DNA of 64,000 nucleotides, from IMG/VR virus record IMGVR_UViG_3300045988_169460. One strand, 5' to 3'. A model generated the notes under the pieces. That model saw only the letters and a program-made list of their open reading frames with translations. It made no database searches and was not told where the DNA came from. The DNA is from a virus. The translations under genes and the position numbers were made by a program. Below are positions 4,840-51,626 of this stretch, piece after piece; the first letter of the stretch is position 1, and each line of letters opens with the position of its first letter.

Positions 4840-4868
4840 TTGACAATTTTTACATAACATGGTATAAT
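4840..4868 (+). promoter_or_regulatory. sigma-A-type promoter
   Basis: TTGACA, 17-nt spacer, TGgTATAAT. Confidence 0.65.
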
Positions 4869-4932
4869 ATTTATAGTGTTCAGATAACAGCTATGACTGT
4901 TAAGTTATTACTTAAAATTTAATAAGTAATGC

Positions 4933-4961
4933 TTGACAGTCTTTTTATTTTATGTTATAAT
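4933..4961 (+). promoter_or_regulatory. sigma-A-type promoter
   Basis: TTGACA, 17-nt spacer, TGtTATAAT. Confidence 0.65.
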
Positions 4962-8855: not shown

Positions 8856-8884
8856 TTGACAAAAATCCAAAAGTATGCTATAAT
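8856..8884 (+). promoter_or_regulatory. sigma-A-type promoter upstream of second tail fibre
   Basis: TTGACA, 17-nt spacer, TGcTATAAT. Confidence 0.65.
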
Positions 8885-8912
8885 AGGTATATAATTAAAG
8901 AGTAAGGAAAAT

Positions 8913-8940
8913 GGGGAAGCTCTAAGTGGGCTTCCTTTTT
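8913..8940 (+). terminator. leader hairpin plus T5 between promoter and tail-fibre start
   Basis: GGAAGC (8915-8920) pairs GCTTCC (8930-8935), then TTTTT. Confidence 0.4.
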
Positions 8941-8963
8941 AGCATATTGAATGGAGGTTTATA

Positions 8964-14093: not shown

Positions 14094-14408
14094 ATGGTTA
14101 GTACAATTACAGTAGATAATTTTAAGTGTAAATGTTGTGGGGCAACGCCTAAAGTGAGTAAACGGCTGTTGAAAATATTGAATGATATACAGACAAACGT
14201 TGGCTCTGAATTAACAATATTATCACCTACTTGTAAAGACCAAGAATTTAAAAAGTTATTAAAAGCTTGTGTCATTTTAGTTCCTAAACTTTATACTGTT
14301 GATGATTTAGCGGACTTAGCGATACTGTATAACGCAGATGGTATAAGAAGGTTATATAAATATAAAGCAGTATATGTAGATGTTTTAGGAAATAAAATGG
14401 ATTATTAA
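14094..14408 (+). CDS. degenerate M15-like domain protein
   Basis: FKCKCCG...LLKILNDIQ...LTILS resembles an M15A N-terminal half; catalytic His/Asp segment not seen. Confidence 0.4.
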   Translation: MVSTITVDNFKCKCCGATPKVSKRLLKILNDIQTNVGSELTILSPTCKDQEFKKLLKACVILVPKLYTVDDLADLAILYNADGIRRLYKYKAVYVDVLGNKMDY

Positions 14409-14436
14409 TCCCTTACTTAGTAAGGGATTTTTTTTA
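14407..14436 (+). terminator. rho-independent terminator after lysis cassette
   Basis: 10-bp stem AATCCCTTAC/GTAAGGGATT, 3-nt loop, T9. Confidence 0.75.
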
Positions 14437-14465
14437 TTGACAAAATTAAAAAAGTGTGGTATAAT
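14437..14465 (+). promoter_or_regulatory. sigma-A-type promoter
   Basis: TTGACA, 17-nt spacer, TGgTATAAT. Confidence 0.7.
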
Positions 14466-32062: not shown

Positions 32063-32347
32063 ATGGAAAAAACAGCTTTATTTAAAGTTTCTTCAACAAG
32101 TAATGCAAAAAGTGTAGCAGGCTCAATCAGCCACACATTGAAAGGTGACGGAGATACGGCACCAAAAGATGTAGTATTGCAAGCAATCGGAGCTAGTGCC
32201 ATTAATCAAACATGTAAAGCTATTGCTATTTCAAGAGGGCATTTAGCTGTGGCAGGATACGATGTAGTTACTAGAATTGGATTTGACGTTGTTGAAATTG
32301 ATGGTGAAGAACGTACAATTTTGAAATTCTTCGTATCATTGAGATAA
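32063..32347 (+). CDS. spoVS: SpoVS-like protein
   Basis: KVSSTSNAKSVAGSIS...LQAIGASAINQTCKAIAISRG...IDGEERT matches the stage V sporulation protein S pattern. Confidence 0.85.
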   Translation: MEKTALFKVSSTSNAKSVAGSISHTLKGDGDTAPKDVVLQAIGASAINQTCKAIAISRGHLAVAGYDVVTRIGFDVVEIDGEERTILKFFVSLR

Positions 32348-34120: not shown

Positions 34121-34540
34121 ATGGATTTAAACTCTGTTAATATAACAGCTACACAAGTAGCTAAAAATTATTTTTCAGCTTATGTTGAAAATGGCTTTAT
34201 TTATTCTTATAGTGTATATGGTGAAAGACAACAAGTTGGTGTTACAAACGATGCTTATACTGCTTTACAGAAGACAGCGCAAGAAGCTTTAGATAAAGCT
34301 GAAAAGTATTATCAACGATTAGTGGAGTTAGGAGATATAGTACCTCCTAAAACATCAGAAGAAACTATTGCAGAATTGATGTCTGTAGTTAGTGAATTAC
34401 GTAATGAGATAAGAGAAATGAAGACAGTTCAACATAAGGGGGATTCAAATGAATCTATTAAGTATACTGAAAGCTCTGGGGATAAAAATTTCCCCACAAA
34501 TAGAGGAAGCTATAGCAAAGGCACAGCAACTGGCAAATAA
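34121..34540 (+). CDS. hypothetical protein
   Basis: ORF; 3' end overlaps the next ORF by 92 nt. Confidence 0.45.
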   Translation: MDLNSVNITATQVAKNYFSAYVENGFIYSYSVYGERQQVGVTNDAYTALQKTAQEALDKAEKYYQRLVELGDIVPPKTSEETIAELMSVVSELRNEIREMKTVQHKGDSNESIKYTESSGDKNFPTNRGSYSKGTATGK

Positions 34541-34799
34541 CTATGGCAATTCTAAAGAGGGCTTTATAAAAGCAGTTAATGAAAATGGTGGAACAGAATC
34601 TTTAACAAAAGCCTTAGCAACATTAGATAATCCAAATGTTGCTAGAGTTTTAACAGCGTTAGGGCACCCGCCAGAGTCTATAAAACAAGCAGTTAATAGT
34701 CTTGGAGCAATAGCTCCTACGCCACAACAAACTCCTAATAATCAAAATATTTCTAATGAGATTAGGTCTTTTGAAGAAAGGCTTAAAAGATTAAAGTAG
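34449..34799 (+). CDS. hypothetical protein
   Basis: ATG 7 nt after AAGGGGGA. Confidence 0.5.
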   Translation: MNLLSILKALGIKISPQIEEAIAKAQQLANNYGNSKEGFIKAVNENGGTESLTKALATLDNPNVARVLTALGHPPESIKQAVNSLGAIAPTPQQTPNNQNISNEIRSFEERLKRLK

Positions 34800-34836
34800 T
34801 AATACTTTAGTTATGTATTTTAAGGAGTGATTTTAA

Positions 34837-35334
34837 GTGGATGAAAAAATAAATTGGGGCTTTATCATTCTTATCTTCTTGTTCTTTATGATTTTTGGAG
34901 GATGGGGTAATGGTGGTCTGTTTGGTGGCAGAGGTGGAGAATGCGCTGGTTGTGGTGTAGTTTCTAACTGTCAAGTAGAAAAACAGCAAATCATTGATAC
35001 AGCTAGAACTCAATACATGATTGAAAACACTGCAAAACAAACCCAAGAACAGGCAATGGCTTTAGCTAATGCTCTTGGAACTAAAATTGATTTCTATGAA
35101 TATCAAAATCTGCGTGACCAACTGGCACAAGAAAGAACTAAAAATGTGGTTCTGGAAAATCGTGTCTATAGTGATGCTAAATTTAATGCACTGGAAAGAC
35201 AGAACGAAGCTATGTTTGGCGTATTAAAATCTGAAATTGCAGACTTGTCTTGCAATGTTCCGAAACGTCCTCCATACTATGCACAAGGTTTTGTAGCTTG
35301 TGGTTCTCCGATTCCCAATGGATGTTGCAACTAA
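34837..35334 (+). CDS. membrane-anchored Gly/Cys-rich protein
   Basis: N-terminal TM then GGWGNGGLFGGRGGECAGCG; C-terminal CGSPIPNGCCN; locally higher GC codon choice. Confidence 0.5.
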   Translation: MDEKINWGFIILIFLFFMIFGGWGNGGLFGGRGGECAGCGVVSNCQVEKQQIIDTARTQYMIENTAKQTQEQAMALANALGTKIDFYEYQNLRDQLAQERTKNVVLENRVYSDAKFNALERQNEAMFGVLKSEIADLSCNVPKRPPYYAQGFVACGSPIPNGCCN

Positions 35335-35364
35335 TCTTTTGAAGTTCCGCTTATTTGCGTGATT

Positions 35365-35397
35365 GAGGGGTAGGCGGTATGCCTACCTCTCTTTTTA
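35365..35397 (+). terminator. rho-independent terminator
   Basis: 11-bp stem GAGGGGTAGGC / GCCTACCTCTC, 5-nt loop, T5. Confidence 0.75.
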
Positions 35398-35416
35398 TAT
35401 TAAGGAGTGATTATTA

Positions 35417-35797
35417 ATGAATTGTAATTGTACAAATATTTTAGCCTCTACTTCTATTACATCCGAAGCTAATGATATTGATATCGTGGTTCCAAGTAGA
35501 ACTATTTATAATGGTCAATGTGAGAAGTTATTAATACAACAGGCAATTCCTGTAAGTACAAATGGAAATGCAGTTCCTGTAAAATTAACTATTGGTGATG
35601 CTTCTGTCTTATTATTAGACCGTTGTGGAAACGCTGTTTTTTCTGACCAATTAAAATCAAGAAAAATCTATGATATTAGATTTCATACAACAGCTTTAAC
35701 AGCTACTATTCTGTGTTCTATTCCAAACTGTACTAGTGGAGTAAATACTGTATTTAATCCTGCAACACCTCCTTCTGAGCCTGTTCCAAGTAATTAA
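35417..35797 (+). CDS. hypothetical Cys-containing protein
   Basis: ATG after AAGGAG. Confidence 0.5.
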   Translation: MNCNCTNILASTSITSEANDIDIVVPSRTIYNGQCEKLLIQQAIPVSTNGNAVPVKLTIGDASVLLLDRCGNAVFSDQLKSRKIYDIRFHTTALTATILCSIPNCTSGVNTVFNPATPPSEPVPSN

Positions 35798-35815
35798 TAG
35801 ACAGGAGGATTAGCT

Positions 35816-35986
35816 ATGAAACTAGATTTAGTGTCCTTAATGTTAGGTTTTGGTGTTGGTTATCTAGCATTAACAGAATCAGGTAGAAAACAGTTAATAA
35901 AAGTAAGCAATCAAGGTGGGGAATTAGTAAATAAGCTTACAGATAAGTATATAGGCGAGCCTATCAGTAAAGCATTAGGGGAATAG
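35816..35986 (+). CDS. small membrane protein (56 aa, below ORF-track cutoff)
   Basis: ATG 6 nt after AGGAGGA; hydrophobic N-terminus. Confidence 0.45.
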   Translation: MKLDLVSLMLGFGVGYLALTESGRKQLIKVSNQGGELVNKLTDKYIGEPISKALGE

Positions 35987-36445: not shown

Positions 36446-36656
36446 TAACGGAAATAATAATAGTCTTCTGGATACTTTAGGGGCTTTAGGTGATTTATTA
36501 GGCATATTAAACTACATAGAAAATTTACAACAAACTAAAAATGATGTTATAATGAAAGAATTAAGAAAGCAAGATAGTGTATATTTTAAGCAAATATTAG
36601 AAAATCAAGCAAGAATTGAAGAAAAGTTAGATAAGTTACTTGACAAGCAAGAGTAG
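36438..36656 (+). CDS. hypothetical protein
   Basis: ORF overlapping the upstream stop. Confidence 0.5.
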   Translation: MNNNGNNNSLLDTLGALGDLLGILNYIENLQQTKNDVIMKELRKQDSVYFKQILENQARIEEKLDKLLDKQE

Positions 36657-36667
36657 TTATGATATAA
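36639..36667 (+). promoter_or_regulatory. sigma-A-type promoter abutting a hairpin
   Basis: TTGACA, 17-nt spacer, TGaTATAAT. Confidence 0.7.
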
Positions 36668-36697
36668 TAGAGGTGTAGTCAAGGCTACGCCTCTATT
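36668..36697 (+). terminator. terminator hairpin starting 1 nt after the -10 box
   Basis: AGAGGTGTAG / CTACGCCTCT 10-bp stem (one G:U), 6-nt loop, ATTTT. Confidence 0.55.
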
Positions 36698-36718
36698 TTA
36701 ATTATAAGGAAGGTTAAA

Positions 36719-36976
36719 ATGCAGAAATTTAAGTTGAGAAATAAAGACCTAGATACTTTAATGGGGATTTATAGAAACAGTTCAATGATTTTTATAAAAA
36801 TAAATCAGTTAACACTACATCAATTTTTCTACGCACATATATCACAAGAAGCAATGGAAAGAAATGAGCCTATTCCTGTTAGAGAAGCTAATATTATGAC
36901 TAGTCGAGTATTGTTTTGGATGCTAGCAAGGGATTTTCTATATTTTTTTAAAAATATTGATGAGGAATGGGAATGA
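36719..36976 (+). CDS. small protein, EWE tail
   Basis: ends DEEWE with AATGGGAATGA. Confidence 0.55.
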   Translation: MQKFKLRNKDLDTLMGIYRNSSMIFIKINQLTLHQFFYAHISQEAMERNEPIPVREANIMTSRVLFWMLARDFLYFFKNIDEEWE

Positions 36977-37224
36977 GAAAAAAATATAGTTTTAGAAGTT
37001 ATGTAACAATAAATTTTTTACAAAATATATTTCCTTTAACTGCTAATGAATGTAGAAAAGTATTAAAATGTGAATATTTTGAAGCAGAAGAAATAAGGAT
37101 TAATTTACATAATTGTTTATTTATATATTTAGAGATAGATAATAAGGTAAGAAGATTTGTGGTTACAGAAAAAGAATTAAAATATTTTAGCAAAGAATTT
37201 AAAGGATTTTATGGATGGGAGTAA
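36973..37224 (+). CDS. small protein, GWE tail
   Basis: ATG overlaps upstream TGA; ends FYGWE with GATGGGAGTAA. Confidence 0.55.
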   Translation: MRKKYSFRSYVTINFLQNIFPLTANECRKVLKCEYFEAEEIRINLHNCLFIYLEIDNKVRRFVVTEKELKYFSKEFKGFYGWE

Positions 37225-37229
37225 GAAAC

Positions 37230-37718
37230 ATGAAAATTATAGCAGTAGATTTTGATGGAACATTATGTGAAAATAAGTACCCAGAAATAGGTGAGCCTGT
37301 TATTGGGTATTATCGAGGGTGGAAAGGTGATAAATACTTTTCTTGTCGCTTTCATTTTATTAAGCTTTTAATAGCTTTGCAAGAAATGGGGAATAAAATA
37401 ATTCTTTTTACTTGCAGAGGTGGGGAACAATTAGAAGAAGCTGTAAGTTGGTGCGATAATCTATTTGGATTAAAGTTTGATGCAGTTAATAATGATGTAG
37501 AAGAAACTTTACAAAGGTATGCTCCAACTCTTGAATTAAGAAATCAATTATCTGCTACAAGAAAGATTTATGCAGATGTTTATATAGATGACAGAAATTT
37601 AAATGCAGATGAATATTTAGAGAAGAATTTAATTTTATTAGATGCAAAATCTTTATATGATATGGGGATAACAGAAAATGCTACAGAATTTTTAATTGAA
37701 AGGGTGTTGAATAAATGA
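37230..37718 (+). CDS. HAD-superfamily phosphatase/nucleotidase-like protein
   Basis: KIIAVDFDGTLC motif I; ATG 8 nt after GGGAG of the junction motif. Confidence 0.6.
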   Translation: MKIIAVDFDGTLCENKYPEIGEPVIGYYRGWKGDKYFSCRFHFIKLLIALQEMGNKIILFTCRGGEQLEEAVSWCDNLFGLKFDAVNNDVEETLQRYAPTLELRNQLSATRKIYADVYIDDRNLNADEYLEKNLILLDAKSLYDMGITENATEFLIERVLNK

Positions 37719-38077
37719 GAAAAATAGTTGTGGCTGGTACAAGAGAATTTAATGATTATAGATTATTATGTGATGTTTTAGATTTTCATATAAATGGTGA
37801 ACAAGTAATTATAATTAGTGGTAATGCTAAAGGGGCAGATTCAATGGGAGAGGTTTATGCTTCTTCTCATAATTTGAAATGTGTAAAATTTCCCCCTGAT
37901 TATGAGACTTATCCTTCTAAAGTAGCCCCATTAAAAAGAAACGAGGAAATGGCAAAGGAAGCTACAGAAGGAATTATATTTTGGGACGGTGTTTCAAGAG
38001 GTACTTGGAATATGATTCAGCAATTAAGAAAATATAAGAAAAAAGTAACTATTATTAACTATAGGAAGTTAGTGTAA
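37715..38077 (+). CDS. SLOG/DUF2493-like Rossmann protein
   Basis: VVAGTREFNDY...IISGNAKGADSMGE pattern. Confidence 0.55.
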   Translation: MRKIVVAGTREFNDYRLLCDVLDFHINGEQVIIISGNAKGADSMGEVYASSHNLKCVKFPPDYETYPSKVAPLKRNEEMAKEATEGIIFWDGVSRGTWNMIQQLRKYKKKVTIINYRKLV

Positions 38078-38078
38078 A

Positions 38079-38687
38079 ATGGATAATTGCGAATTTTATT
38101 TATTATATAGCGGCGGGTATGATAGCACTGTGTTGCTTTATGATTTTATTGATAAATTACCTAATAAATTGACAGTAATACATATTGTTACTCAGTATAA
38201 TCAAGAAGAAACAAAAGCGGCAAGAGAGATAATTGAATTAGTAAAAGACAAAATTCTTAACTATATTGAATTAGAAATGCCTGTTTATAAAACAGAAATA
38301 GAATATATTCCATACAGAAATGCTCAATTTATATTAAGAGCACTTTCAACCTTGACAATTAAAGCAGGATGTGCTATAATATTATTAGGGTTGATAAGAG
38401 TAGAAGAACCTTTTCCTGATTGCACACAGTATTGGTTAAAAACAATGGAGAAATTAGTTCAAGTAGAAAATCCTCATATTGGATTAGAAGCACCTTATAT
38501 TAACAATACTAAAGATGAAATTTATACTGTAGGATGTAAGTTTAAGGTTCCTTTAAGAAATACTTTTAGTTGTAACTTTCCTGTAGATGGTGCAGAATGC
38601 GGGGAATGTGGAAACTGTAAATGGAAAGCAAAACATAAATATCCTAATTATTTTAGAGTTATAGAAGGAGGTAGAAACAATGTTTAA
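38079..38687 (+). CDS. queC: 7-cyano-7-deazaguanine synthase
   Basis: LLYSGGYDSTVLL PP-loop; C-terminal CNF...CGECGNCKWK zinc cluster. Confidence 0.8.
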   Translation: MDNCEFYLLYSGGYDSTVLLYDFIDKLPNKLTVIHIVTQYNQEETKAAREIIELVKDKILNYIELEMPVYKTEIEYIPYRNAQFILRALSTLTIKAGCAIILLGLIRVEEPFPDCTQYWLKTMEKLVQVENPHIGLEAPYINNTKDEIYTVGCKFKVPLRNTFSCNFPVDGAECGECGNCKWKAKHKYPNYFRVIEGGRNNV

Positions 38688-38880
38688 AATTATTAATGGT
38701 AAGGGAACAGGTTCTAACACACAAAAGAGTGCAGTGAATACCTCCCCACAAGTGAAGATTACTAGCCCAGCAACAAGAAGAAGTTTATCTTGGCTTAGAA
38801 GGGTGCAAACAAGTTTAACTCCAAGAACAAAAAAAGCTTTAGATTGGTTAGAAGCCAATAGTGTTAGATTACCTAAATAA
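38680..38880 (+). CDS. small basic protein
   Basis: ORF between queC and the dpdA-like gene. Confidence 0.45.
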   Translation: MFKIINGKGTGSNTQKSAVNTSPQVKITSPATRRSLSWLRRVQTSLTPRTKKALDWLEANSVRLPK

Positions 38881-38895
38881 TAGGAGAATTAGTTA

Positions 38896-40737
38896 ATGAA
38901 AAATGGATATACGTTATTTCTTTCTGGTGTTGAACCAGAAGAAAATTTCTATACTGCAATAGATGTTACCTCTAGTCTATTGCAGTCTTATTGGTATATA
39001 AAGCGGCGTGGAAAAGATAAAATTGTAGAGCGTTTTGATAAAGTTAAGAAAAATTCTTTGTTAATTGATAGTGGAGCACATACTTTTCTCACCTTAGCAG
39101 AATATCAAGATAAGACAGTAGATTATTGGGAAGAGTATATAAAAGGATATATAGCTTTTGTAAGAAAACATAGAGAAAAAGTATTTGCTTGTGTTGAAAT
39201 GGATATAGATACTTTAGTAGGAACAGAACAAGTAAATAAATGGAGAGAAGAATACTTTCATTCTTTAGAGGAAGAGGGCATTTCTGTTATTTATGTTTAT
39301 CATGCAGAAAAGGGATTGGAAGAGTGGGAAAGAATGTGTAAAACATATTCCTATGTTGGGTTCTCTTACAATGAATTTGAAGATGCTATTTTAATTGATA
39401 AATTATTTGAAATAGCAATGGAATATAAAACTAAAGTACATGGTTTTGCAGTATCGGGATATAGAGAATTATTAAAACATGAGTATTATACAAGTGACAG
39501 TACAAGTTGGATTACAGGAGCTCAATATGGAGAATTAAACTATTTTGAAGGTGGGAAATTAAAACGGCTCACAAAAGAAAAATGGAAAAATGAATATTAT
39601 GCAAAAATACTTGATTTATGTACAAGTAAAAAGTTATTAGAAGCAGAAGCTCCTTATGAATTAATGCGTATTAGTGCTTTAAGTTATAAGAAATTAGAAG
39701 AGCATGTAAATGATATATTTAGAGGCAAAAGATATTGGATTGGAAGAAAGGAAGTGTCTAAAGTAGCGAGTAAGGGAAATTTACCGCCAGTAGAGTGGTT
39801 TTCAACTGATATGGAAGATTGGCAAGAATGGGCACAGAAATTAAATATAGACACGAATCTTCCTGATGAAGCAGGTAAATCATTAATTGTTGCTTGTTAC
39901 AATTTTGTGACAGATAATCCTATTATAAATGAGTATCCTCTCGAAGAATTAATTGACTTATGTGGACTTTTTGGTGATAAGAAGTCGAATACTCTTACTA
40001 AGTGCCGAAAAGCCCTTAAAGAGCACTTTACAGCTCTCTTAAAGGGTAGTATGGATTTATCCACTTTGACAGAAGAAGAAGTAGAAGAGAAAAAAAATGT
40101 AGTTCCAAAAGAGCGGGAAGAGTATGTTCAAGAAAAAGAGTATGTAGAATGTACTGTTAGCAAGGAAGAGTGTCAAGGTTTATTAAAAGGGTTATTAACT
40201 TCTGGTGTGACAGATGAAGCAGAGAAAGCTTTAATTGAACAGGGAATAGAGCCTATTTATGATGAGAATGGAAACATTAAAGCAGGTATTAAACGAATAA
40301 AGAAAAGAAAATCTTTAAGTTCAAGTGTGATGCCAGAGTTAAGTTGCAATATTTGTACTAAAGCACGGAGATGTCCTTTATATGAAGAAGGAATGCTTTG
40401 TGCTTATAATAAAATGTTTAAGCAATTTGATACAAGAAATCCCGAAGATGTAGTAGATGCTATGAGCAGTATTGCAAATTTAAGTTTAGAAAGATTATCA
40501 AGGGCTGTGACATTTGAAAAATTAGATGGTGGCTTAAATACTAAAGAGGTAACAGAGACAATGGCAGAAGCATGGAAATATCTTGAAAAGATACAAGAAA
40601 TTCAAACAAAGAGTGATAAAGTTATAGCAGAGCGTAGAGTTGTAACTTCTTCTAACGGCGATGTAGAAGTAAGAGAAAGTGTAACAGGAAATCCGCAAGG
40701 TTTATTGTCTGAGATTCTAAAAACAAAAAAAAGTTGA
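38896..40737 (+). CDS. dpdA: DpdA-like DNA-guanine transglycosylase with ~300-aa C-terminal extension
   Basis: LLIDSGAHTF resembles the TGT/DpdA catalytic DSGGFQ segment; adjacent to queC and near queD/queE. Confidence 0.55.
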   Translation: MKNGYTLFLSGVEPEENFYTAIDVTSSLLQSYWYIKRRGKDKIVERFDKVKKNSLLIDSGAHTFLTLAEYQDKTVDYWEEYIKGYIAFVRKHREKVFACVEMDIDTLVGTEQVNKWREEYFHSLEEEGISVIYVYHAEKGLEEWERMCKTYSYVGFSYNEFEDAILIDKLFEIAMEYKTKVHGFAVSGYRELLKHEYYTSDSTSWITGAQYGELNYFEGGKLKRLTKEKWKNEYYAKILDLCTSKKLLEAEAPYELMRISALSYKKLEEHVNDIFRGKRYWIGRKEVSKVASKGNLPPVEWFSTDMEDWQEWAQKLNIDTNLPDEAGKSLIVACYNFVTDNPIINEYPLEELIDLCGLFGDKKSNTLTKCRKALKEHFTALLKGSMDLSTLTEEEVEEKKNVVPKEREEYVQEKEYVECTVSKEECQGLLKGLLTSGVTDEAEKALIEQGIEPIYDENGNIKAGIKRIKKRKSLSSSVMPELSCNICTKARRCPLYEEGMLCAYNKMFKQFDTRNPEDVVDAMSSIANLSLERLSRAVTFEKLDGGLNTKEVTETMAEAWKYLEKIQEIQTKSDKVIAERRVVTSSNGDVEVRESVTGNPQGLLSEILKTKKS

Positions 40738-40762
40738 CAATAATCCCTTAATATGGTATAAT
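40734..40762 (+). promoter_or_regulatory. sigma-A-type promoter with -10 box in a terminator loop
   Basis: TTGACA (contains the dpdA stop TGA), 17-nt spacer, TGgTATAAT. Confidence 0.7.
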
Positions 40763-40788
40763 AAAACTATATTAAGGGATTTTTTTTA
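40743..40788 (+). terminator. terminator hairpin enclosing the -10 box
   Basis: 12-bp stem ATCCCTTAATAT / ATATTAAGGGAT, 14-nt loop, T8. Confidence 0.7.
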
Positions 40789-40802
40789 AGAGGTGGCAAT
40801 AA

Positions 40803-41120
40803 ATGAAGAGAATTAGTTATGGAAAAAGATTTAGATTATTAGAAGAAGGGTATATTGGATACAAGTGGTTTTCTAAAGGGTCAATATTTATGGCTACAGG
40901 ATTAATTAGTTTTATGGGTAATAATATATTCCGTGTTTATAATCCTGATGGCAGTTTAAGACAAGATTTGCATACTGGTAATGGACATGTAAATTTTTTT
41001 TTAAGTTTATCTCCTATATCAAAAGATGAGCTTTTAGCATCAGAAGAATGTTATTGGTTTTTAAATGATATAGAATTAAGAACTTATTTTAAAGAAATTG
41101 TCTATGAGGAATGGGAGTAA
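40803..41120 (+). CDS. small protein, EWE tail, family B
   Basis: paralog of 41126-41434; ends YEEWE. Confidence 0.6.
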   Translation: MKRISYGKRFRLLEEGYIGYKWFSKGSIFMATGLISFMGNNIFRVYNPDGSLRQDLHTGNGHVNFFLSLSPISKDELLASEECYWFLNDIELRTYFKEIVYEEWE

Positions 41121-41125
41121 GAGTT

Positions 41126-41434
41126 ATGAAAAAATACAAAGAAACTTTTATAGTAAAAAGTCAGTTTTCTGATGGATTAAGGACTTTTCCTAAAGGAACA
41201 ATATTTGAAAGCACAGGAGTTTTTTTTGGCATTGAAACACTTTTTTGTGTTTACTATCCCGATGGAGTTCCTTATGCTTGTTTACATGATGGCAATAGTG
41301 CTCAAATAATGCTTTTAAATAGAACACCTTTAACATTAGCTGAAATTCGAGCACAAGGTGATTGTCATTGGTGGGTTAGAAATTCTGATATTGATGAATA
41401 TTTTATACCAAAATCATCTTTAGAATGGGAGTGA
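41126..41434 (+). CDS. small protein, EWE tail, family B
   Basis: ATG 8 nt after GGGAG; ends SLEWE. Confidence 0.6.
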   Translation: MKKYKETFIVKSQFSDGLRTFPKGTIFESTGVFFGIETLFCVYYPDGVPYACLHDGNSAQIMLLNRTPLTLAEIRAQGDCHWWVRNSDIDEYFIPKSSLEWE

Positions 41435-41439
41435 AAAAA

Positions 41440-41703
41440 TTGAACATAATACTAGGAGAATATTTTATAGTTACTAGACCTTTTAGATATGAGGGCAATG
41501 TATTTCATAAAGATGATTTATTACGTGTAGCTAAAATATATAGTTGGTCTAAAGTTTTAGTTTCCAATAGAGCTTGGATATCAACTAAAGTAGGACACAC
41601 AGACCCAAAAAATCAATATAGTTTTGGTGAAGAAACAAATTGGAATATTGATACAGAATATTTATTTAAAAATTGTGTTCCTTATAGGTCAGAATGGGAG
41701 TAG
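41440..41703 (+). CDS. small protein, EWE tail, family A
   Basis: TTG 8 nt after GGGAG; NQYSFG...NW motif; ends RSEWE. Confidence 0.6.
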   Translation: MNIILGEYFIVTRPFRYEGNVFHKDDLLRVAKIYSWSKVLVSNRAWISTKVGHTDPKNQYSFGEETNWNIDTEYLFKNCVPYRSEWE

Positions 41704-41708
41704 TGGAG

Positions 41709-42065
41709 ATGAAATATAAAGCAGGAGATGTAGTAAAAATTGACAAAACAAGATTTGTTATAGAAAGAGTTACTAAAAAAGGCTATATTTTATTTCCTCA
41801 TATAGGATTTTTCGTAAAGGATTGCCAAATAAATAAAAAAATTAAAGTGAAGAAATCTTATGAATTAGGAGATAAATTCAAATGTCTATGTGACTTTAGT
41901 TCAGGGACTTCTGTGGCGAAAAAAGACAAACATTATATTTGTACACAGAAATTTTCAGATGGCACATATATGCTTACAAGAATAAAAAATAAAGAAGAGA
42001 AATTAAGAGTGAATACAAATCAGATTCATGCTTATTTTAGACATTATTTTGGAGGTTGGGAATAG
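41709..42065 (+). CDS. small protein, GWE tail
   Basis: ATG 8 nt after GGGAG; ends FGGWE. Confidence 0.55.
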   Translation: MKYKAGDVVKIDKTRFVIERVTKKGYILFPHIGFFVKDCQINKKIKVKKSYELGDKFKCLCDFSSGTSVAKKDKHYICTQKFSDGTYMLTRIKNKEEKLRVNTNQIHAYFRHYFGGWE

Positions 42066-42268
42066 TGCCAATAGGAACAAGAGTAAGAATAAGAGAAGAT
42101 TTAAAAACTACAGAAACTTATGGTGGCGTAAGAGTTATAGAAGATATGCTAGTTTATGCAGGTAAAGAAACAACAATAATTTGGCATGAAGCTAATGTAT
42201 ATCATATACTTTTAGATGATGGTTTTTACTATTGGACAGATGAAATGTTTATTAGTGAATGGGAATAA
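42065..42268 (+). CDS. small protein, EWE tail, family C
   Basis: PIGTRVRIREDLK...YYWTDEMF; paralog of 45232 and 50088; ends ISEWE. Confidence 0.6.
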   Translation: MPIGTRVRIREDLKTTETYGGVRVIEDMLVYAGKETTIIWHEANVYHILLDDGFYYWTDEMFISEWE

Positions 42269-42275
42269 AAAAGTC

Positions 42276-42304
42276 TTGACAAAATAAAATAGTTGTGGTA
42301 TAAT
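42276..42304 (+). promoter_or_regulatory. sigma-A-type promoter (identical copy at 43135)
   Basis: TTGACA, 17-nt spacer, TGgTATAAT. Confidence 0.7.
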
Positions 42305-42337
42305 AAGTGCATAAGATATTGAAAGAGAGGTTATAAC

Positions 42338-43129
42338 ATGTGTATTATAATTTATAAACCAGCAAAAGCTACACTAAAAAAAGAAACATTAAAAACAGCA
42401 TTTGAAAACAATCCTGATGGTGCAGGATTTATGTACCAATCTGATTTACTTGAAGCTCCTAAAATGCAAAAGGGATTTTTTGATTTTGATAAATTTTATG
42501 AGGCATATGAGAAAGTGGCTGAAAGTGATAAAGGTTATAATATTGCTGTTCATTTTAGAATTGCAACGCATGGAGCTGTTAATAGTTTAAACTGTCATCC
42601 TTTTATTGTTAAAGAAAGTGTTGAAAAAACTATTAGCGAAAAAGGACAGTATAGTTCTTTATTTATGCAAAATGGTGTTATTAAAAGTATTTCTGTAAAT
42701 AAGAAAGATAAATATAGCGATACTTGTAATTTCACCTATAAAATTATGTCTAAAATTAAAACATTAACAAGCATGAAGATAAAAGATATTCTGGAAACTA
42801 TTGAATCTCCAAGTAGATTTTGTTTAATGCAAGAAGGGCGAAAACCTTTATTGATTGGTAGTTTCAAAAAAGATGGTGGAGTAAGCTTTAGTAATGAATC
42901 CTATAAAGAAATAAAAATTGTTACTTCTTATCCTACTACTTTTGAAACTTATTTACTTGCATTCGAAGATTGCGATGCAAAAGATATTAGAGATATTGAA
43001 ACAGAACTTAAAGATGACCAATGTGGAATTATTGATGCTTATAATGTAGGAGATGTGACTTTCTTTGAAACGAACTATCTCCCTATTAGAGAAAAGATTG
43101 CAGGTAAAGAATTTCGATGTTATCGTTGA
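42338..43129 (+). CDS. class-II (Ntn) glutamine amidotransferase-like protein
   Basis: N-terminal MC nucleophile, NPDGAGF, HFRIATHG, NCHPF motifs. Confidence 0.7.
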   Translation: MCIIIYKPAKATLKKETLKTAFENNPDGAGFMYQSDLLEAPKMQKGFFDFDKFYEAYEKVAESDKGYNIAVHFRIATHGAVNSLNCHPFIVKESVEKTISEKGQYSSLFMQNGVIKSISVNKKDKYSDTCNFTYKIMSKIKTLTSMKIKDILETIESPSRFCLMQEGRKPLLIGSFKKDGGVSFSNESYKEIKIVTSYPTTFETYLLAFEDCDAKDIRDIETELKDDQCGIIDAYNVGDVTFFETNYLPIREKIAGKEFRCYR

Positions 43130-43134
43130 AAAGT

Positions 43135-43163
43135 CTTGACAAAATAAAATAGTTGTGGTATAA
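43135..43163 (+). promoter_or_regulatory. sigma-A-type promoter (identical copy at 42276)
   Basis: TTGACA, 17-nt spacer, TGgTATAAT. Confidence 0.7.
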
Positions 43164-43196
43164 TATAAATACACTAAAAATAAAGGAGATAATAGT

Positions 43197-43589
43197 ATGA
43201 ATTTTCGCATTAACGATGTAGTAACATTAAAACAAGGATTGACAGGTGAAAAAGAAAAGTATAGTGGCAAGACTTTAATGATTCGAGCGATTTCTGATGG
43301 TAATTACATTATGAAAGTACCAAATAAAACTGCACCAAAAGACAATCGTGAACTTATGGATGTAAGTTTTAATGACACTGATATTCAATTAAATCCTTTA
43401 GAAGTAAAGGTAGAAACTGATTCTGATGGGATAATTGATATTATGGCTAAAAATTCAAAAGATGAATGGATTGCAATTTTACGGTTACAGGATGGAGAAT
43501 TATTGCGTAAAAAAGATTTAGCAAAACAAGGTTTTTCTGGCTTGAAGTTAGACTTTAAAGGAAGACTTCGGTTAGTAACCAGTTATTAA
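43197..43589 (+). CDS. hypothetical protein
   Basis: ATG after AAGGAG. Confidence 0.55.
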   Translation: MNFRINDVVTLKQGLTGEKEKYSGKTLMIRAISDGNYIMKVPNKTAPKDNRELMDVSFNDTDIQLNPLEVKVETDSDGIIDIMAKNSKDEWIAILRLQDGELLRKKDLAKQGFSGLKLDFKGRLRLVTSY

Positions 43590-43897
43590 TGTTACCTGAA
43601 TATATAAGTGCTGAAAATGGAATAAAGTATGTGCCTTTTACTGGCAATATTTTATTCCTTAAAAGTATATTATATGAACACAATAATTTTCCAATAAGAT
43701 TACTTTTAGAAGAAGAACAATTATCCGCTTTTATCATTGTTTACGTAACAGCAAAGAACTTAATTTGTGTGGATACAAGTTCAGAAGGTAAATTGTTTGA
43801 AAGTATTTTAAAAATACCTGTTAGCACTTTAAAAGAGCGTGTGTTTGAGGGAATAAATTATGAAATTTACATTAAACAAACTGCTTTAGGAGAGTAG
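43589..43897 (+). CDS. hypothetical protein
   Basis: TAATG overlap. Confidence 0.5.
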   Translation: MLPEYISAENGIKYVPFTGNILFLKSILYEHNNFPIRLLLEEEQLSAFIIVYVTAKNLICVDTSSEGKLFESILKIPVSTLKERVFEGINYEIYIKQTALGE

Positions 43898-43900
43898 CCA

Positions 43901-44236
43901 ATGAAAAGATATCACATAGCAGTAAAATTTGATAAAGAAAAGATAGCAAATATAGATTTCTGTAAATTACATTTAATATTTACTAAACATTTTAAACAAA
44001 GAGCATGTTTAAAAAGGATTCCTAAGCCTTATAAAGCTCTGTTAAAAAGGGGCAAGATTTTTGAATATTATACAGATGATAATGAAAATTTGCTTAAATT
44101 TGTCATACGTTGTAAATACAATGAAAATTGTGATGTTTGTTATGTGTTAACTCCTACTGGCAGGGTTATTACTGGTTGGTGGCAAGATACAAATGATAGT
44201 CATTCAACATTAAAAATAAATTTATATGAAAGGTGA
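43901..44236 (+). CDS. hypothetical protein
   Basis: ORF packed on same strand. Confidence 0.5.
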   Translation: MKRYHIAVKFDKEKIANIDFCKLHLIFTKHFKQRACLKRIPKPYKALLKRGKIFEYYTDDNENLLKFVIRCKYNENCDVCYVLTPTGRVITGWWQDTNDSHSTLKINLYER

Positions 44237-44243
44237 TAAGAAT

Positions 44244-44762
44244 ATGAATAAGAAAACTGATGAAATTAAAAAAAGTGGAGATGAAGATTTTCAAGCATTT
44301 GTAGACCTTTGTTCTGCTATTTTGCTTGGTGAGGATAAGAGAGCAGAATCAGTAAAGAAAGCAACTAAAGAACCTGATAATGCTGGTATCCCTAAAGGTT
44401 ATACTATTGACACTAAATATTGGAAGCAATTTCCTCAATTAAAATCAGGAATGCTAGTTTTAGTTTCAAATGGTTGCTGGGGCAAAATTTCCGAAGATTG
44501 GGAAACTGGTCGTCTTTATTTTTATCATAAAGGAGAAGCTACTTCTTTAGATGAATTGCAAAAACAAACTGGAAAAGGTTTAGAAAAATTATTTATAGAA
44601 GTATATGTTCCTAAGAATCAGTATGCAATTCATTCATACAATCCTGAGAATTTTAATTTGCATTATACTTGTTTGAAAAAGAAACCTGAAAAAGTGCGTA
44701 TTTCTTTAGCAGAATTGCTGAAAAGAGCGGGGTTAGAAGGAAAGGAAGTTGAAATTCATTAA
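44244..44762 (+). CDS. hypothetical protein
   Basis: ATG 7 nt after AGGTGA. Confidence 0.5.
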   Translation: MNKKTDEIKKSGDEDFQAFVDLCSAILLGEDKRAESVKKATKEPDNAGIPKGYTIDTKYWKQFPQLKSGMLVLVSNGCWGKISEDWETGRLYFYHKGEATSLDELQKQTGKGLEKLFIEVYVPKNQYAIHSYNPENFNLHYTCLKKKPEKVRISLAELLKRAGLEGKEVEIH

Positions 44763-44986
44763 TGTTTGGATGTGCGGCTTGTTTAACGATTTTTTTATTC
44801 ACTATTAACTTATTAGGCTATGTCTCTTTAAGTTATTGGATTATTTTCGCTCCAGTTATGTTTGCCTTTGGCATTACAGCTCTTTTTGGACTATTTGCAG
44901 TAGGTATTATAGCGACAATGGATTATATTGTTACATCAGAAAGGTTTAAAGAATGGAAGGACTTACACAAACAAGAAAAGAATTAA
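44762..44986 (+). CDS. membrane protein
   Basis: two TM segments; TAATG overlap. Confidence 0.55.
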   Translation: MFGCAACLTIFLFTINLLGYVSLSYWIIFAPVMFAFGITALFGLFAVGIIATMDYIVTSERFKEWKDLHKQEKN

Positions 44987-45165
44987 TAGAATCTGCTATT
45001 AAGCTTCTTTTAGATTGCGATGATTATGAAGGTTTAAATTTTAAAGAATACGATACGACACAAGAAATAGTAGAAATTCCAAGTAAAGAATTTGAGCTTT
45101 TACACAAACTTTCCCGAATTGGAAGTTTGTTTGTACTTTCTATTTTAGAGAGTGAGCAAAAATAG
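44953..45165 (+). CDS. hypothetical protein
   Basis: ORF overlapping the upstream 3' end. Confidence 0.45.
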   Translation: MEGLTQTRKELIESAIKLLLDCDDYEGLNFKEYDTTQEIVEIPSKEFELLHKLSRIGSLFVLSILESEQK

Positions 45166-45166
45166 T

Positions 45167-45195
45167 TTGACAAAATCCCTTACATGTGATATAAT
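45167..45195 (+). promoter_or_regulatory. sigma-A-type promoter with -10 box in a terminator loop
   Basis: TTGACA, 17-nt spacer, TGaTATAAT. Confidence 0.7.
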
Positions 45196-45214
45196 GCATA
45201 TGTAAGGGATTTTT
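45175..45214 (+). terminator. terminator hairpin enclosing the -10 box
   Basis: 11-bp stem ATCCCTTACAT / ATGTAAGGGAT, 14-nt loop, T5. Confidence 0.7.
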
Positions 45215-45231
45215 ACTAAGGAGGCTTGCAA

Positions 45232-45450
45232 ATGATACCAATAGGAACAAGAGTAAGAATAAGAGAAGATTTAAAATTAGGTGTACTTTATAAAAACAGA
45301 AATAATAAACGTGCTATGCATGCTTGTAGAGGCATGTTATTATTGGCTGGTAAAAAAGCGTACATAACAAATAATGTTAATAATATTTACTCTATAGATA
45401 ATGGTTTTTATTATTGGACAGATGGAATGTTTGAAACTGAATGGGAATAA
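45232..45450 (+). CDS. small protein, EWE tail, family C
   Basis: ATG 7 nt after AGGAGG; IPIGTRVRIREDLK...YYWTDGMFETEWE. Confidence 0.6.
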   Translation: MIPIGTRVRIREDLKLGVLYKNRNNKRAMHACRGMLLLAGKKAYITNNVNNIYSIDNGFYYWTDGMFETEWE

Positions 45451-45517: not shown

Positions 45518-46687
45518 ATGTTAAATTGCAAAATTTGCGGTAATGAAATTAGTGGAGCTTATACAATTTATCAAAAAGACGGAGTAGAATATCCAGCACA
45601 CATTGAATGTGTCGAAGAAAACAAGCAACATTGTGATGAGTGCAATAAGTTTTTTGATAGAGAAGATTTAAAAACTACAACATTAGGAAACCATTATTGC
45701 CCAGATTGTTTGTCTGAAAAAACTGTAGTTTGTGGAAAATGCGGTAAACACGTAGAAAATGCACCATTGAAAAGAGTAAATAGTGTATCTTATTGTCAAG
45801 AGTGCTTTGAACAGAAATGGGTATATTGTGTAAAATGTGGTAAAAGGGTTTTAAGAAGCAGAGCAAAAAATTTAAATAATACACATTATTGCGCTTCATG
45901 TGCTAGTTCTGTTGTTAAGGTAGAAAATTATAGTTACAAACCTACCCCTATATTTTGTGGTGTAGATAGTTCTCGTTATTTTGGTATTGAAGTCGAAACT
46001 GAGGGCAGAAAAAGTAATCTTTATGCAGAAGAAATTATTGGAGGTTCAAAAATTTTCTATGCAAAACATGATGGCAGTTTAAATAATGGAATTGAATTTG
46101 TAAGTCATCCTTGCACTCTTAACTATTGGAGAGAGGAATCCAAGCTTGATGAATTTTGTAAAAGAGCGATTGGTTTAGGATTTAACTCTCATAAAACTAC
46201 TTCTTGTGGATTGCATGTTCATATTACTAAATCTACAGTAGAAAGGGAAGCTTTTGAAAAAGTGCTTCTGTTTTTAAGCAATAACTGGGATGATGTGGTG
46301 AAATTTACACGCCGTAAAAGTTCCAGCATTAATAGATGGGCGGCTAATAATTTAGGGGATGCACCAATGATTAAAACTTGTACTCTTGCACAAAAAATGA
46401 AATTAGTAAAAGAGTATTCTTCTGGCAGTCGTTATGTAGCAGTAAATGAAACATCTAAGACATATGAATTCCGTATTTTTAGAGGAACTTTAAAACCTGA
46501 AACTATTTTAGCTTGCATTGAGTTTTGTGATGCTCTTATCAATTTATGTGCTAGTTTGCCTTTTGCAAACATTGAAACAGCTAATTTTAATACTTTAATA
46601 GAATTTGCAAAACCTAAAGGATGCTATAAAGAGCTTGTAGAATATTGGGAAACTCGAACAATGAAGAAGAATGTTGTTATTGAATAA
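45518..46687 (+). CDS. amidoligase (glutamine-synthetase-like carboxylate-amine ligase family) with four N-terminal zinc-ribbon repeats
   Basis: repeated CxxC...CxxC units; YFGIEVETE, KHDGSLNNGIEFVSHP, GLHVHI, YEFRIFRGTL core. Confidence 0.65.
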   Translation: MLNCKICGNEISGAYTIYQKDGVEYPAHIECVEENKQHCDECNKFFDREDLKTTTLGNHYCPDCLSEKTVVCGKCGKHVENAPLKRVNSVSYCQECFEQKWVYCVKCGKRVLRSRAKNLNNTHYCASCASSVVKVENYSYKPTPIFCGVDSSRYFGIEVETEGRKSNLYAEEIIGGSKIFYAKHDGSLNNGIEFVSHPCTLNYWREESKLDEFCKRAIGLGFNSHKTTSCGLHVHITKSTVEREAFEKVLLFLSNNWDDVVKFTRRKSSSINRWAANNLGDAPMIKTCTLAQKMKLVKEYSSGSRYVAVNETSKTYEFRIFRGTLKPETILACIEFCDALINLCASLPFANIETANFNTLIEFAKPKGCYKELVEYWETRTMKKNVVIE

Positions 46688-49248: not shown

Positions 49249-49496
49249 TTTTGACTATAATGATTCCTTTTAATATTGGAGATAAAGTAAAGGCTTCAGA
49301 AGTATATTTTCTAAAGCCTTTTTGTACTGTAAGTGACATTCAAAACGCTGATTCTTTCAGGGAAGTATTAGTTATAGATGTTAAAAATAATATCAAAGGT
49401 AATTTGCAAGTTTTAGTTGAACTTTCTGATTTAACGAGGAGATGGATTCCGATTTGGATTATTCGTTTATGGGGGCAACTATATGATGAAATTTAA
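49245..49496 (+). CDS. hypothetical protein
   Basis: ATGA overlap with the shifted frame of the upstream gene. Confidence 0.5.
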   Translation: MILTIMIPFNIGDKVKASEVYFLKPFCTVSDIQNADSFREVLVIDVKNNIKGNLQVLVELSDLTRRWIPIWIIRLWGQLYDEI

Positions 49497-50382: not shown

Positions 50383-50589
50383 ATGACAAAAGTTGAATTA
50401 TTTAATAAATTTTTAGAGGATAGTGATGCAACAATAACAATATCTTTCTTATTCTGTAAAGAAAATTATGGTTTATTTTTCAAACATAGAAATTTAGCTT
50501 GTATCTTATCTTTATGGCATTTTCAAATTTTAATTCATAAAGGAGATTTATTAAAATATTGTTCAGAAAAATTAAAGGAGCGTAAATAG
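50383..50589 (+). CDS. hypothetical protein
   Basis: ATG after AGGAGA. Confidence 0.5.
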   Translation: MTKVELFNKFLEDSDATITISFLFCKENYGLFFKHRNLACILSLWHFQILIHKGDLLKYCSEKLKERK

Positions 50590-50591
50590 AA

Positions 50592-50918
50592 ATGGAAACA
50601 GTACAATTAGAGCAAATAGCAAATAACTTAATAGCTAAATTAGAACCAGCATGTGTAGAAGTATTAAATCAAGGAGCAAATTTTGTAGCAACAGAAGCTT
50701 TATATTTAGTTATTATAAACATTGTATTTTTTATGGTTTGTTTTATTGGCATTTGGCTTGCTTCAAATATAAGAGATACAGATATTCAAGAAGTTACAAT
50801 AGCCGTACTTTTAGTAGGTGCTCTTTTATCAGCGGCTAATTTTCTCTTAACTTTTTCGCATAATATGGCTACAATTCAATATCCTATGGGGTATTTAATA
50901 GTAAATGTATTAAAATGA
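50592..50918 (+). CDS. membrane protein
   Basis: two to three TM segments. Confidence 0.55.
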   Translation: METVQLEQIANNLIAKLEPACVEVLNQGANFVATEALYLVIINIVFFMVCFIGIWLASNIRDTDIQEVTIAVLLVGALLSAANFLLTFSHNMATIQYPMGYLIVNVLK

Positions 50919-50928
50919 GGTGATAAAA

Positions 50929-51213
50929 ATGAATTTTGAAAAAGCGTTAAAAAAAGTAAAAGACATCGTATGGAAATGGCAGTTTTCTGAAAAGAGAGAG
51001 GCATTTATTCAGGTTATAGTAGCCGCTCAAAAACAAATTCCAAAATTAGCAAAAGTAAGTGTAGTACCTCAATATATTGAAGGAAGGGAAATGCCTAAAT
51101 TAGTTCCTGTAGATGTACGTTGTCCTGAATGCGATTCTATAGTATCCATAAGAGATAATTATTGTTCAGATTGTGGGCAAGCTCTTAGTTTTGATTTTAA
51201 GGAGGGGCATTAA
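50929..51213 (+). CDS. zinc-ribbon protein
   Basis: CPECDS...CSDCG; ATG 6 nt after GAGGTG. Confidence 0.5.
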   Translation: MNFEKALKKVKDIVWKWQFSEKREAFIQVIVAAQKQIPKLAKVSVVPQYIEGREMPKLVPVDVRCPECDSIVSIRDNYCSDCGQALSFDFKEGH

Positions 51214-51626
51214 TGTATAGCAAGTATATCCAACAATTTTTAGAAGATAATGATTTACAAGCAGGTGAAAAATTTTATATTTTGGGAGAAGATGGTGAGG
51301 AATTAAATGGCAAAAGTAACTATTATTTTAAAATAAATCCAGAGAGCACACTTGATATTTTAAAATGTGATAGTGATAGAACTTGTCAGGATTTTGTTTT
51401 ATTAAGATTATTGACTGAAAAGTATAAAGTGAAGAAAACACCTTTTCATCCTAAAAAACATGAAACGTTTTATTATGTAACTGTTCAAGGAGATATTGAA
51501 GAAGAAGACTTTTATGAGGGATATACATTTCATTATTTATTATGTAAACTAGGAAAATGCTATAAGACTTATAAGGAAGCAGAAAAACATGTAGAAGAAG
51601 ATGTTAAATTTTATAAAAATATGTAA
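51213..51626 (+). CDS. hypothetical protein (paralog of 7631 and 60959)
   Basis: first ~22 codons nearly identical at nucleotide level to the minus-strand gene 60959-61372. Confidence 0.6.
   Translation: MYSKYIQQFLEDNDLQAGEKFYILGEDGEELNGKSNYYFKINPESTLDILKCDSDRTCQDFVLLRLLTEKYKVKKTPFHPKKHETFYYVTVQGDIEEEDFYEGYTFHYLLCKLGKCYKTYKEAEKHVEEDVKFYKNM

Follow-up and report, generated by a model that had tools for sequence, protein, structure and literature searches.

Introduction

Can the bases that end one transcription unit of a phage also serve to begin the next? This question is raised by three intergenic elements, at positions 36640, 40734 and 45167 of the 64,000-nucleotide stretch of viral DNA analysed here (the window; IMG/VR record IMGVR_UViG_3300045988_169460), at each of which a perfect promoter is overlapped by a terminator-like hairpin. 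An earlier reading, made from the letters alone (the sequence-only reading), had proposed that transcripts arriving from upstream meet a complete terminator, whereas transcripts initiated within the element lack part of the hairpin and escape. Our analyses indicate that the elements are probably compact composite terminator/promoter junctions between two transcription units.

The window has a G+C content of 31%, carries every gene on the + strand, and encodes a family A DNA polymerase, a RecA-like protein, a primase, a helicase and a 613-aa DpdA-like protein. The phage is known from metagenomes only: a megablast search of known phages with the 36-46 kb region gave zero matches, and the near-identical and more distant relatives are IMG/VR and metagenome contigs of up to ~99 kb, some of them labelled human gut. 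The closest cultured relative is Bacillus phage BCD7 (Becedseptimavirus), with ~30-33% protein identity and the same gene order. The "Firmicutes-type" label previously given to the phage is a provisional one, based on BCD7 and on the types of signal present (extended -10 boxes and strong AGGAGG ribosome-binding sites). An Rfam scan of the entire window matched no family, and no tRNA genes were found in it. Related loci (n = 54; L121-L135 and L137-L175) were retrieved with the DpdA-like protein and the helicase as queries. Among them we distinguish a closer clade with ~96-98% DNA identity to the window (the window clade) and the 75% clade, consisting of L132, L146 and L147, with ~75% protein identity to the window phage.

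Results

A distinct class of promoters

The window contains 18 perfect promoters (12/12 matches to TTGACA-17-TGnTATAAT), all on the + strand, where a chance expectation of ~0.04 per strand was computed from the base composition. When the region from the spacer through +35 was folded, the promoters at 36640, 40734 and 45167 gave -19.9, -20.0 and -22.3 kcal/mol, respectively, and the other 15 gave -8.3 kcal/mol or weaker. These three promoters therefore constitute a distinct class among the 18. Their hairpins have energies of -19.5 to -22.9 kcal/mol (z-scores of -5.8 to -6.7), and 0 of 200 dinucleotide shuffles folded as well. The hairpins show the features of intrinsic terminators, with stems of 13-16 bp that include 4-5 G-C pairs, and loops of 4-8 nt; the tails on the 3' side of the stems are U8, U5 and UUU-AAUU. 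Among the ~9 strong + strand terminators in the window, these three contain a promoter and a fourth, at 14407, abuts one.

The features of these sites are collected in Table 1. The promoter/terminator overlap described in the sequence-only reading was confirmed at all three sites by the sequences themselves, by folding and by the shuffles, and the coordinates given for it hold, except that the third promoter begins at 36640 and not at 36639. The -10 box had been placed in a 14-nt loop. This is correct for arms that pair perfectly as DNA; once G.U pairs are admitted, however, the stems become longer, the loop is reduced to 8 nt and part of the -10 box lies in the stem. The terminator at 14407 does stand directly against the promoter that follows it, as described.

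Table 1. Positions of the three nested elements, their flanking signals and the non-nested version in the window
Feature	Position	Strand	Description
Promoter 40734	40734..40762	+	perfect sigma-A/sigma-70-type: TTGACA, 17-nt spacer, TGg-TATAAT
Stop codon (TGA) of upstream DpdA-like gene	40735-40737	+	within the -35 box of promoter 40734
Layout of site 40734			TTGACA (40734-39)-ATAATCCCTTAATATGG-TATAAT (40757-62)-AAAACT-ATATTAAGGGATT-T run
Hairpin AAUCCCUUAAUAUGGU / ACUAUAUUAAGGGAUU	40742..40781	+	16 bp, 8-nt loop, ~-19.5 kcal/mol, z -5.8
T8 tract	40780..40787	+	right behind the stem; T8 to T10 among relatives
Ribosome-binding site AAGAGGTGG	40788-40796	+	followed by ATG 40803
Promoter 45167	45167..45195	+	perfect TTGACA-17-TGa-TATAAT; stop of upstream open reading frame (ORF) at 45163-45165, 1 nt before the -35 box
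Layout of site 45167			TTGACA (45167-72)-AAATCCCTTACATGTGA-TATAAT (45190-95)-GC-ATGTAAGGGAT-TTTT
Hairpin AUCCCUUACAUGUG / CAUAUGUAAGGGAU	45175..45210	+	14 bp, 8-nt loop, -19.6 kcal/mol, z -6.7
Signals 3' of hairpin 45175	45210-45232	+	T5 45210-45214; ribosome-binding site AAGGAGG 45218-45224; ATG 45232
Promoter 36640	36640..36668	+	perfect TTGACA-17-TGa-TATAAT; stop of upstream ORF at 36654-36656, in the spacer
Hairpin AUAGAGGUGUAGU / GCUACGCCUCUAU	36667-36696	+	13 bp including one U.G, 4-nt loop, z -6.5
Arms of the 36640 hairpin	36667-36696		ATAGAGGTGTAGT/GCTACGCCTCTAT; the hairpin starts inside the -10 box
Whole 36640 element	36667..36703	+	UUUAAUU behind the hairpin
Non-nested version	14407..14465	+	terminator AATCCCTTAC-TTA-GTAAGGGATT at 14407-14429, z -3.65
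T-run of the 14407 terminator	14430-14436	+	abuts promoter 14437-14465

At sigma-70/sigma-A promoters, transcription starts 7 nt past the -10 box. The starts predicted on this basis, at about 40769, 45202 and 36675, fall at or in the 3' arm at 40734 and 45167, in agreement with the earlier proposal, and in the 5' arm at 36640. At site 40734, the 5' arm of the hairpin is formed by the promoter spacer, the -10 box occupies the upper stem and the loop, and the predicted start is in the 3' arm; at site 45167 it is likewise inside the 3' arm. At site 36640, a start in the 5' arm would leave a 5-bp stub that does not adjoin the U-run. RNAs beginning at the predicted starts would be without significant structure, with z-scores of -1.0, +0.4 and -0.45, the last being that of 36640.

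Conservation and covariation

The elements are present in ~20 independent metagenome assemblies, and the 75% clade retains all three of them in nested form. At site 40734, identical columns pair in both clades, with 96% of the cells paired as compared with 35-52% when the partner columns are slid, and three pairs have changed on both sides between the clades (A-U to U.G, U-A to C-G and C-G to U-A). At site 45167, the arms ATCCCTTAC/GTAAGGGAT of one clade correspond to ATACCCCCTTA/TAAGGGGGTAT in the other. At site 36640, the stem is unchanged between the clades and the promoter spacer differs at 7 of its 17 positions. The ortholog of the 14407 terminator displays one change from A-U to G-C, together with a U.G pair.

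One-sided changes that preserve the pairing of the stems, seen in 36640 variants and in L146, L166 and L173, are all of the G.U type on the + strand, and none is of the A.C type. This pattern favours a + strand RNA hairpin over a protein-binding DNA palindrome, because only the former predicts changes restricted to G.U.

The same junction in distant relatives

The region downstream of the DpdA-like gene was compared in relatives at ~30-40% protein identity. In L149, the promoter TTGATT-17-TGaTATAAT lies within the hairpin TAGCTACATGATA/TATCGTGTAGCTA, which is followed by UUAUUUUU; the TGA stop codon is in the -35 box, and a separate ribosome-binding site comes after the U-tract. L153 combines TTGCTA-17-TGcTATAGT with the arms AATAACTGATAGT/ACTATCAGTTATT and a T6 tract, again with a separate ribosome-binding site behind it. 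The hairpin begins directly after the -10 box in L135 and L157, the T-tail of the terminator runs into a TTTACA -35 box in L150, L151 and L152, and a terminator alone is found in L156, L159 and L160. Nothing clear was found at this junction in L155 and L158. The arms of the distant relatives sit in differing registers of the promoter spacer. By sequence comparison, then, a terminator-then-promoter boundary is a conserved feature of the DpdA-gene junction, and nesting occurs there in at least four lineages whose stems are unrelated in sequence.

Discussion

Proposed mechanism

We propose that the host RNA polymerase uses these junctions in the early/middle region of the phage, where the genes are small. 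Coming in from the upstream gene, a polymerase would transcribe both arms and the U-tract, the RNA would fold into a hairpin of about -20 kcal/mol, and the transcript would be released. At the nested promoter, transcription would instead start ~7 nt past the -10 box, in the 3' arm (40734 and 45167) or the 5' arm (36640). Because the full 5' arm would be missing from this RNA, no terminator would form, and the polymerase would read across the U-tract into the downstream genes. The outcome would be that the local promoter alone sets downstream expression, with a stop codon, a -35 box, a -10 box, a terminator, a ribosome-binding site and a start codon packed in ~65-70 nt. The notion of a full terminator for incoming RNA and escape of the local RNA is consistent with every computational test available to us; it is supported by the stability of the hairpins, the U-tracts, the compensatory changes, the restriction of neutral changes to G.U on the + strand, and the recurrence of the architecture with unrelated stems at the same junction.

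Several points weigh against this interpretation. Insulation would extend to the downstream genes but not to the promoter: incoming polymerases would cross it before reaching the release point, and it would not be shielded from occlusion. The 8-nt loops and A/U-rich upper stems are at the large and weak end for intrinsic terminators, the U-tracts are short at 45167 (U5) and 36640 (UUU, then AAUU), and the U-tract of the 75% clade is interrupted (AUUUAUUU). The stem is weakened in three single variants (L142, L123 and L130), the last of which lacks the 3' arm. The column-wise covariation is drawn from two clades with few independent lineages, and in a shuffle control the count of two-sided pair changes was unexceptional (124/500) while the cell-level score was exceptional (6/500). 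Finally, genome compaction, and not selection for a regulatory device, may account for the overlap.

Compaction or coupling

The last of these points deserves to be taken seriously, even if we consider it short of probable. Terminator and promoter would each work, and would interpenetrate through tight packing, as promoter spacers tolerate almost any sequence; the overlap would then have no function of its own. The stop codons that lie in the -35 box or the spacer and the gaps of only ~62-66 nt between the genes at these junctions fit such packing, as do the adjacent, merged or nested arrangements that related phages show at the same junction, and the sporadic nested designs in unrelated phage DNA, for example in L233. 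However, at one junction nesting has persisted in at least four lineages although the stem sequence has been replaced entirely. It is also several-fold commoner in the window (2/23 strong promoter-like sites, or 3/18 perfect promoters) than in 1.98 Mb of unrelated viral DNA, where at most 4 distinct nested sites were found among 287 strong promoter-like sites, a background rate that is rough, one of these sites (L233) having been picked by a pattern search, and that refers to the type with the -10 box in the loop only, the automated detector having missed the 36640 type.

The L233 site, at 6707-6760 of its stretch (IMGVR_UViG_3300036715_001196, 77.7 kb, 36.5% G+C in the stretch), lies on a contig of no evident kinship to the phage of the window, and shows a nested design with the stem core seen here: the loop of AAAAATCCCTTATA/TATAAGGGATTTTT contains TTGCAA-16-TGcTATAAT, and an ATG follows. 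In the host-takeover region of SPO1 (first 16 kb), neither of the two promoter-like sites (at least 11/12 matches) was nested. BCD7 (L136) has only two weak overlap candidates, both on the - strand. At 20053, behind the ribonucleotide reductase beta gene, AGGAGAGCGG…CCGCTCTTTTATT comes immediately after TTGACC-17-TATAAT; at 35149, the arms AAAGTAGAAT/ATTCTACTTT flank the -10 box of TTGACA-18-TACAAT.

In Gram-positive hosts, translation lags behind transcription, and a terminator can be placed at a stop codon. The nesting might be a selected device, in which release 20-50 bp past a consensus promoter would couple the two units, with additional insulation through a ribosome-binding site in the 3' arm. 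We consider this unlikely; if true, it would be a rule of design that applies generally to phages of Gram-positive hosts. Terminating polymerases might occlude the promoter, as at the tufB-secE overlap considered below, which would make the coupling negative; a positive coupling could arise if a post-termination polymerase slid back to the adjacent promoter. Re-initiation nearby by a polymerase that slides after termination is a published form of coupling (bioRxiv 10.1101/2023.02.10.528045).

Shared arm and cassette exchange

The 8-mer ATCCCTTA was counted 8 times in the window (expected, 3.1), and 1 of 100 shuffles gave as many. Six of the 8 occurrences are arms of three hairpins, and the 8-mer is common to 3 of the ~9 terminators. 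The sequence-only reading had seen a repeat family in this shared core. The over-representation stands, but AATCCCTTA...TAAGGGATTTT is an ordinary terminator stem, found in at least 118 viral contig stretches, most of them from unrelated contigs, and the core is not diagnostic. In the 75% clade it differs at two of the three sites. The case for a repeat family is accordingly a weak one. The shared stem could be due to common descent, to gene conversion or to convergence on a low-complexity sequence that looks like a ribosome-binding site. The pattern of promoter plus arm was found in at least 120 stretches; among the matches listed, the complementary arm is present as well only in this phage family. 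A ATCCCTTA cassette that is mobile between phages was considered and rejected, as the hairpin core also serves as an ordinary terminator in unrelated contigs.

It has to be asked whether the elements are recombination substrates in the manner of the promoter-early stem-loop (PeSL) elements of T4-type phages, that is, crossover points for cassettes of small genes. Such a role, which would be compatible with that of a terminator/promoter junction, appears possible but somewhat doubtful. When the window clade is compared with the 75% clade, DNA homology is lost at the 3' arm in every one of the three elements (36710, 40777 and 45208); for two of them it reappears just upstream of the perfect promoter that comes next (42252 and 45442). 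For the downstream genes, no Pfam match passes the threshold and the PHROG families matched are all of unknown function, a RecA-like protein is encoded by the phage, and in L130 a 640-bp deletion (window 40772-41411) starts in the loop. Within the ~96-98% clade, however, most indels are elsewhere, and the recurrent ones (32195, 33816, 34135-35978, 36983-37187, 49249 and 50435) lie away from the elements. The L130 junction has a microhomology of at most 2 nt, which marks an illegitimate deletion and rules out homologous recombination there. Moreover, the copies share only the hexamers and 8-10 nt of arm, as opposed to ~100 bp in PeSLs, and the variable segment past 40734 consists of tandem paralogous small genes, so that unequal crossing-over within the array can resize it.

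The 3' arm and translation

In the 75% clade, the 3' arm is the sole ribosome-binding site at both sites that have the -10 box in the loop (AAGGAGGT, 8 nt, then ATG; AAGGGGGT, 8 nt, then TTG), whereas in the window clade a separate ribosome-binding site lies 3' of the T-run. In the 75% clade, read-through RNA would hide the site within the hairpin and leave the first downstream gene translationally silent, which suggests a second, translational layer of insulation. One could go further and suppose that this masking of the ribosome-binding site in upstream RNA is the main role of the hairpin and termination a secondary one. The interrupted U-tracts of the 75% clade would agree with this, and the TAAGG(G/A)G core common to the arms is similar to a ribosome-binding site, a possible reason for the likeness of the two nested stems. 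Nevertheless, we regard a mainly translational role as quite improbable, given that a separate ribosome-binding site lies downstream of the U-tract in the window clade, L149 and L153, that the window copies have uninterrupted T8 and T5 tracts, and that the 36640-type and 14407 hairpins contain no ribosome-binding site.

A DNA operator, with a dimeric phage or host repressor bound to ATCCCTTA/TAAGGGAT half-sites, is very improbable and was rejected: the half-sites do bracket the -10 box, the same 8-mer is present at three sites and symmetric half-site changes would mimic compensatory ones, but the outer span of the repeat is variable (38, 36 and 21 bp at the three sites), the neutral one-sided changes are strand-asymmetric, each + strand G.U being an A.C mismatch in a DNA palindrome, the 14407 copy has no promoter inside, a T-run stands behind every copy, and relatives retain the architecture with unrelated arms, the same stem being an ordinary terminator in many unrelated phages.

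Relation to known systems

The design of these terminator/promoter junctions is a variant of composite elements already described and not a new principle. The closest match is provided by the PeSL elements, which in T4-type phages form five subclasses according to the position of the stem-loop, including subclasses where it is located between the -35 box and the -10 box or overlaps the latter (PMC2839356). Promoter and terminator activity of PeSLs has been shown with reporters (Arbiol et al. 2010, PMC2839356; also Comeau et al. 2014, PMC4122927), and stem-loops that overlap early promoters terminate transcription in such assays (PMC2839356). PeSLs join a near-consensus TTGACA-N17-TATAAT promoter to a stem-loop proposed to terminate upstream transcription; the elements of the window likewise consist of a consensus promoter (12/12, 17-nt spacer, TG extension) and a stable overlapping stem-loop, for which termination is predicted. 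Both occupy the space that separates the stop codon from the ribosome-binding site and ATG, and both are found in regions of small genes of unknown function that vary between relatives.

The differences are also considerable. The present elements reside in a BCD7-like phage with Gram-positive-type signals, not in a T4-like myovirus, and their A/U-rich hairpins of 13-16 bp are followed by a true U-tract, whereas PeSLs have short Gn-loop-Cn stems. Here the hairpin spans the predicted start site, so that the 3' arm and the U-tract would form the 5' leader, the 3' arm also serving in one clade as the ribosome-binding site. The window holds three nested copies and one adjacent copy in 64 kb, sharing 8-10 nt beyond the hexamers, while the PeSL motif of ~100 bp is present in many copies. 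PeSLs are characterised by recombination between copies that yields chimeric elements and mini-circles; here the sole junction inside an element is that of L130, with its minimal microhomology. The PeSL-like architecture noted in the sequence-only reading is therefore borne out as a strong likeness in the way of working, including that of the subclasses overlapping the -10 box, but membership of the PeSL family fails on three points, namely the phage that hosts the elements, the shared motif with its length and number of copies, and evidence of exchange between copies.

A second parallel comes from enterobacterial interoperon regions. In the part of the source available (PMC6735719), the terminator-promoter overlap at Salmonella tufB-secE is reported to regulate secE, and transcription from upstream lowers initiation at the overlapped promoter. 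As in the window, an upstream terminator overlaps the -35/-10 boxes of the next unit, and the arrangement is conserved in evolution. By analogy, lowered initiation under upstream transcription is probably a consequence here too. The enterobacterial overlaps differ in being chromosomal, Gram-negative and associated with ribosomal-protein and housekeeping operons, and the geometry seen here, with the -10 box in the loop and the predicted start in the 3' arm, is not stated in that part of the source. The 'morons' of lambdoid phages, which are promoter-gene-terminator units discussed in PMC2839356, are similarly self-contained transcription units of accessory genes with a promoter and terminator of their own; their parts are separate, however, whereas in the window the terminator of the upstream unit shares bases with the next promoter.

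If confirmed, the element would represent a natural part of ~60 nt joining a stop codon, a promoter, a terminator and, in one clade, a ribosome-binding site, and would illustrate how the many small accessory-gene units of a phage can be transcribed independently of one another while taking up minimal space. The idea of a composite promoter/terminator, known from T4-type phages and enterobacterial operons, would then also apply to a lineage of uncultured gut phages with Gram-positive-type signals. The natural compensatory variants offer a clean system for the interplay of termination and initiation on shared DNA, and the element could find use as a compact insulator for synthetic biology in low-GC bacteria.

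Other features of the window and its relatives

The segments 40803-42268 and 45232-45450 are occupied by small ORFs whose products end in EWE or GWE and are of unknown function, and the EWE junction motif mentioned in the earlier reading is also found at 15211, 42276 and 45459. Neighbouring genes of this kind overlap as GAATGGGAGTGA (…EWE stop / MGV…), or the stop codon is followed by AAAAA and a perfect promoter. Paralogs among them are 40803 and 41111, and 42056 and 45232 (phrog_7488). The promoters at 42276 and 43136 are identical over 37 nt (42269-42305 and 43129-43165), including the spacer AAATAAAATAGTTGTGG, and their counterparts in the 75% clade (L132 12537 and 13391) have one common, different spacer, AACAATAAAATATGTGG, as if the two promoters had undergone concerted evolution or gene conversion.

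Position 32195 is an insertion hotspot in relatives (L122-L148), with inserts of 275, 418 and 886-892 bp. Further recurrent indels are a 1241-bp insert at 33816, deletions with many endpoints at 34135-35978, and those at 36983-37187, 49249-49468 and 50435-51586.

Immediately downstream of the 45167 element lies a gene for a 389-aa protein (45518-46687), which has a 484-aa paralog (57026-58480); both combine cysteine-rich LIM-like zinc-finger repeats with a putative amidoligase (Amidoligase_2) domain. Two tandem perfect promoters, at 4840 and 4933 (window 4840-4961), are 93 bp apart with no obvious ORF between them. Behind promoter 8856 (window 8856-8963), a four-codon mini-ORF, ATG GGG AAG CTC TAA (8911-8925), is located at about +25 to +50. 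It overlaps a terminator hairpin (8915-8935, followed by T5) just before a gene for a 931-aa tail-fibre-like protein, and could be a leader/attenuator or an antitermination target.

Outside this phage family, a family of ~17-kb gut viral contigs (L177, L180-L183, L189, L196, L200, L201 and others) carries AAAATCCCTTAGAG…CTCTAAGGGATTTT, apparently a bidirectional terminator. The same contigs have a TTGACA-17-TGgTATACT promoter set in a conserved inverted repeat, behind which there is no T-run.

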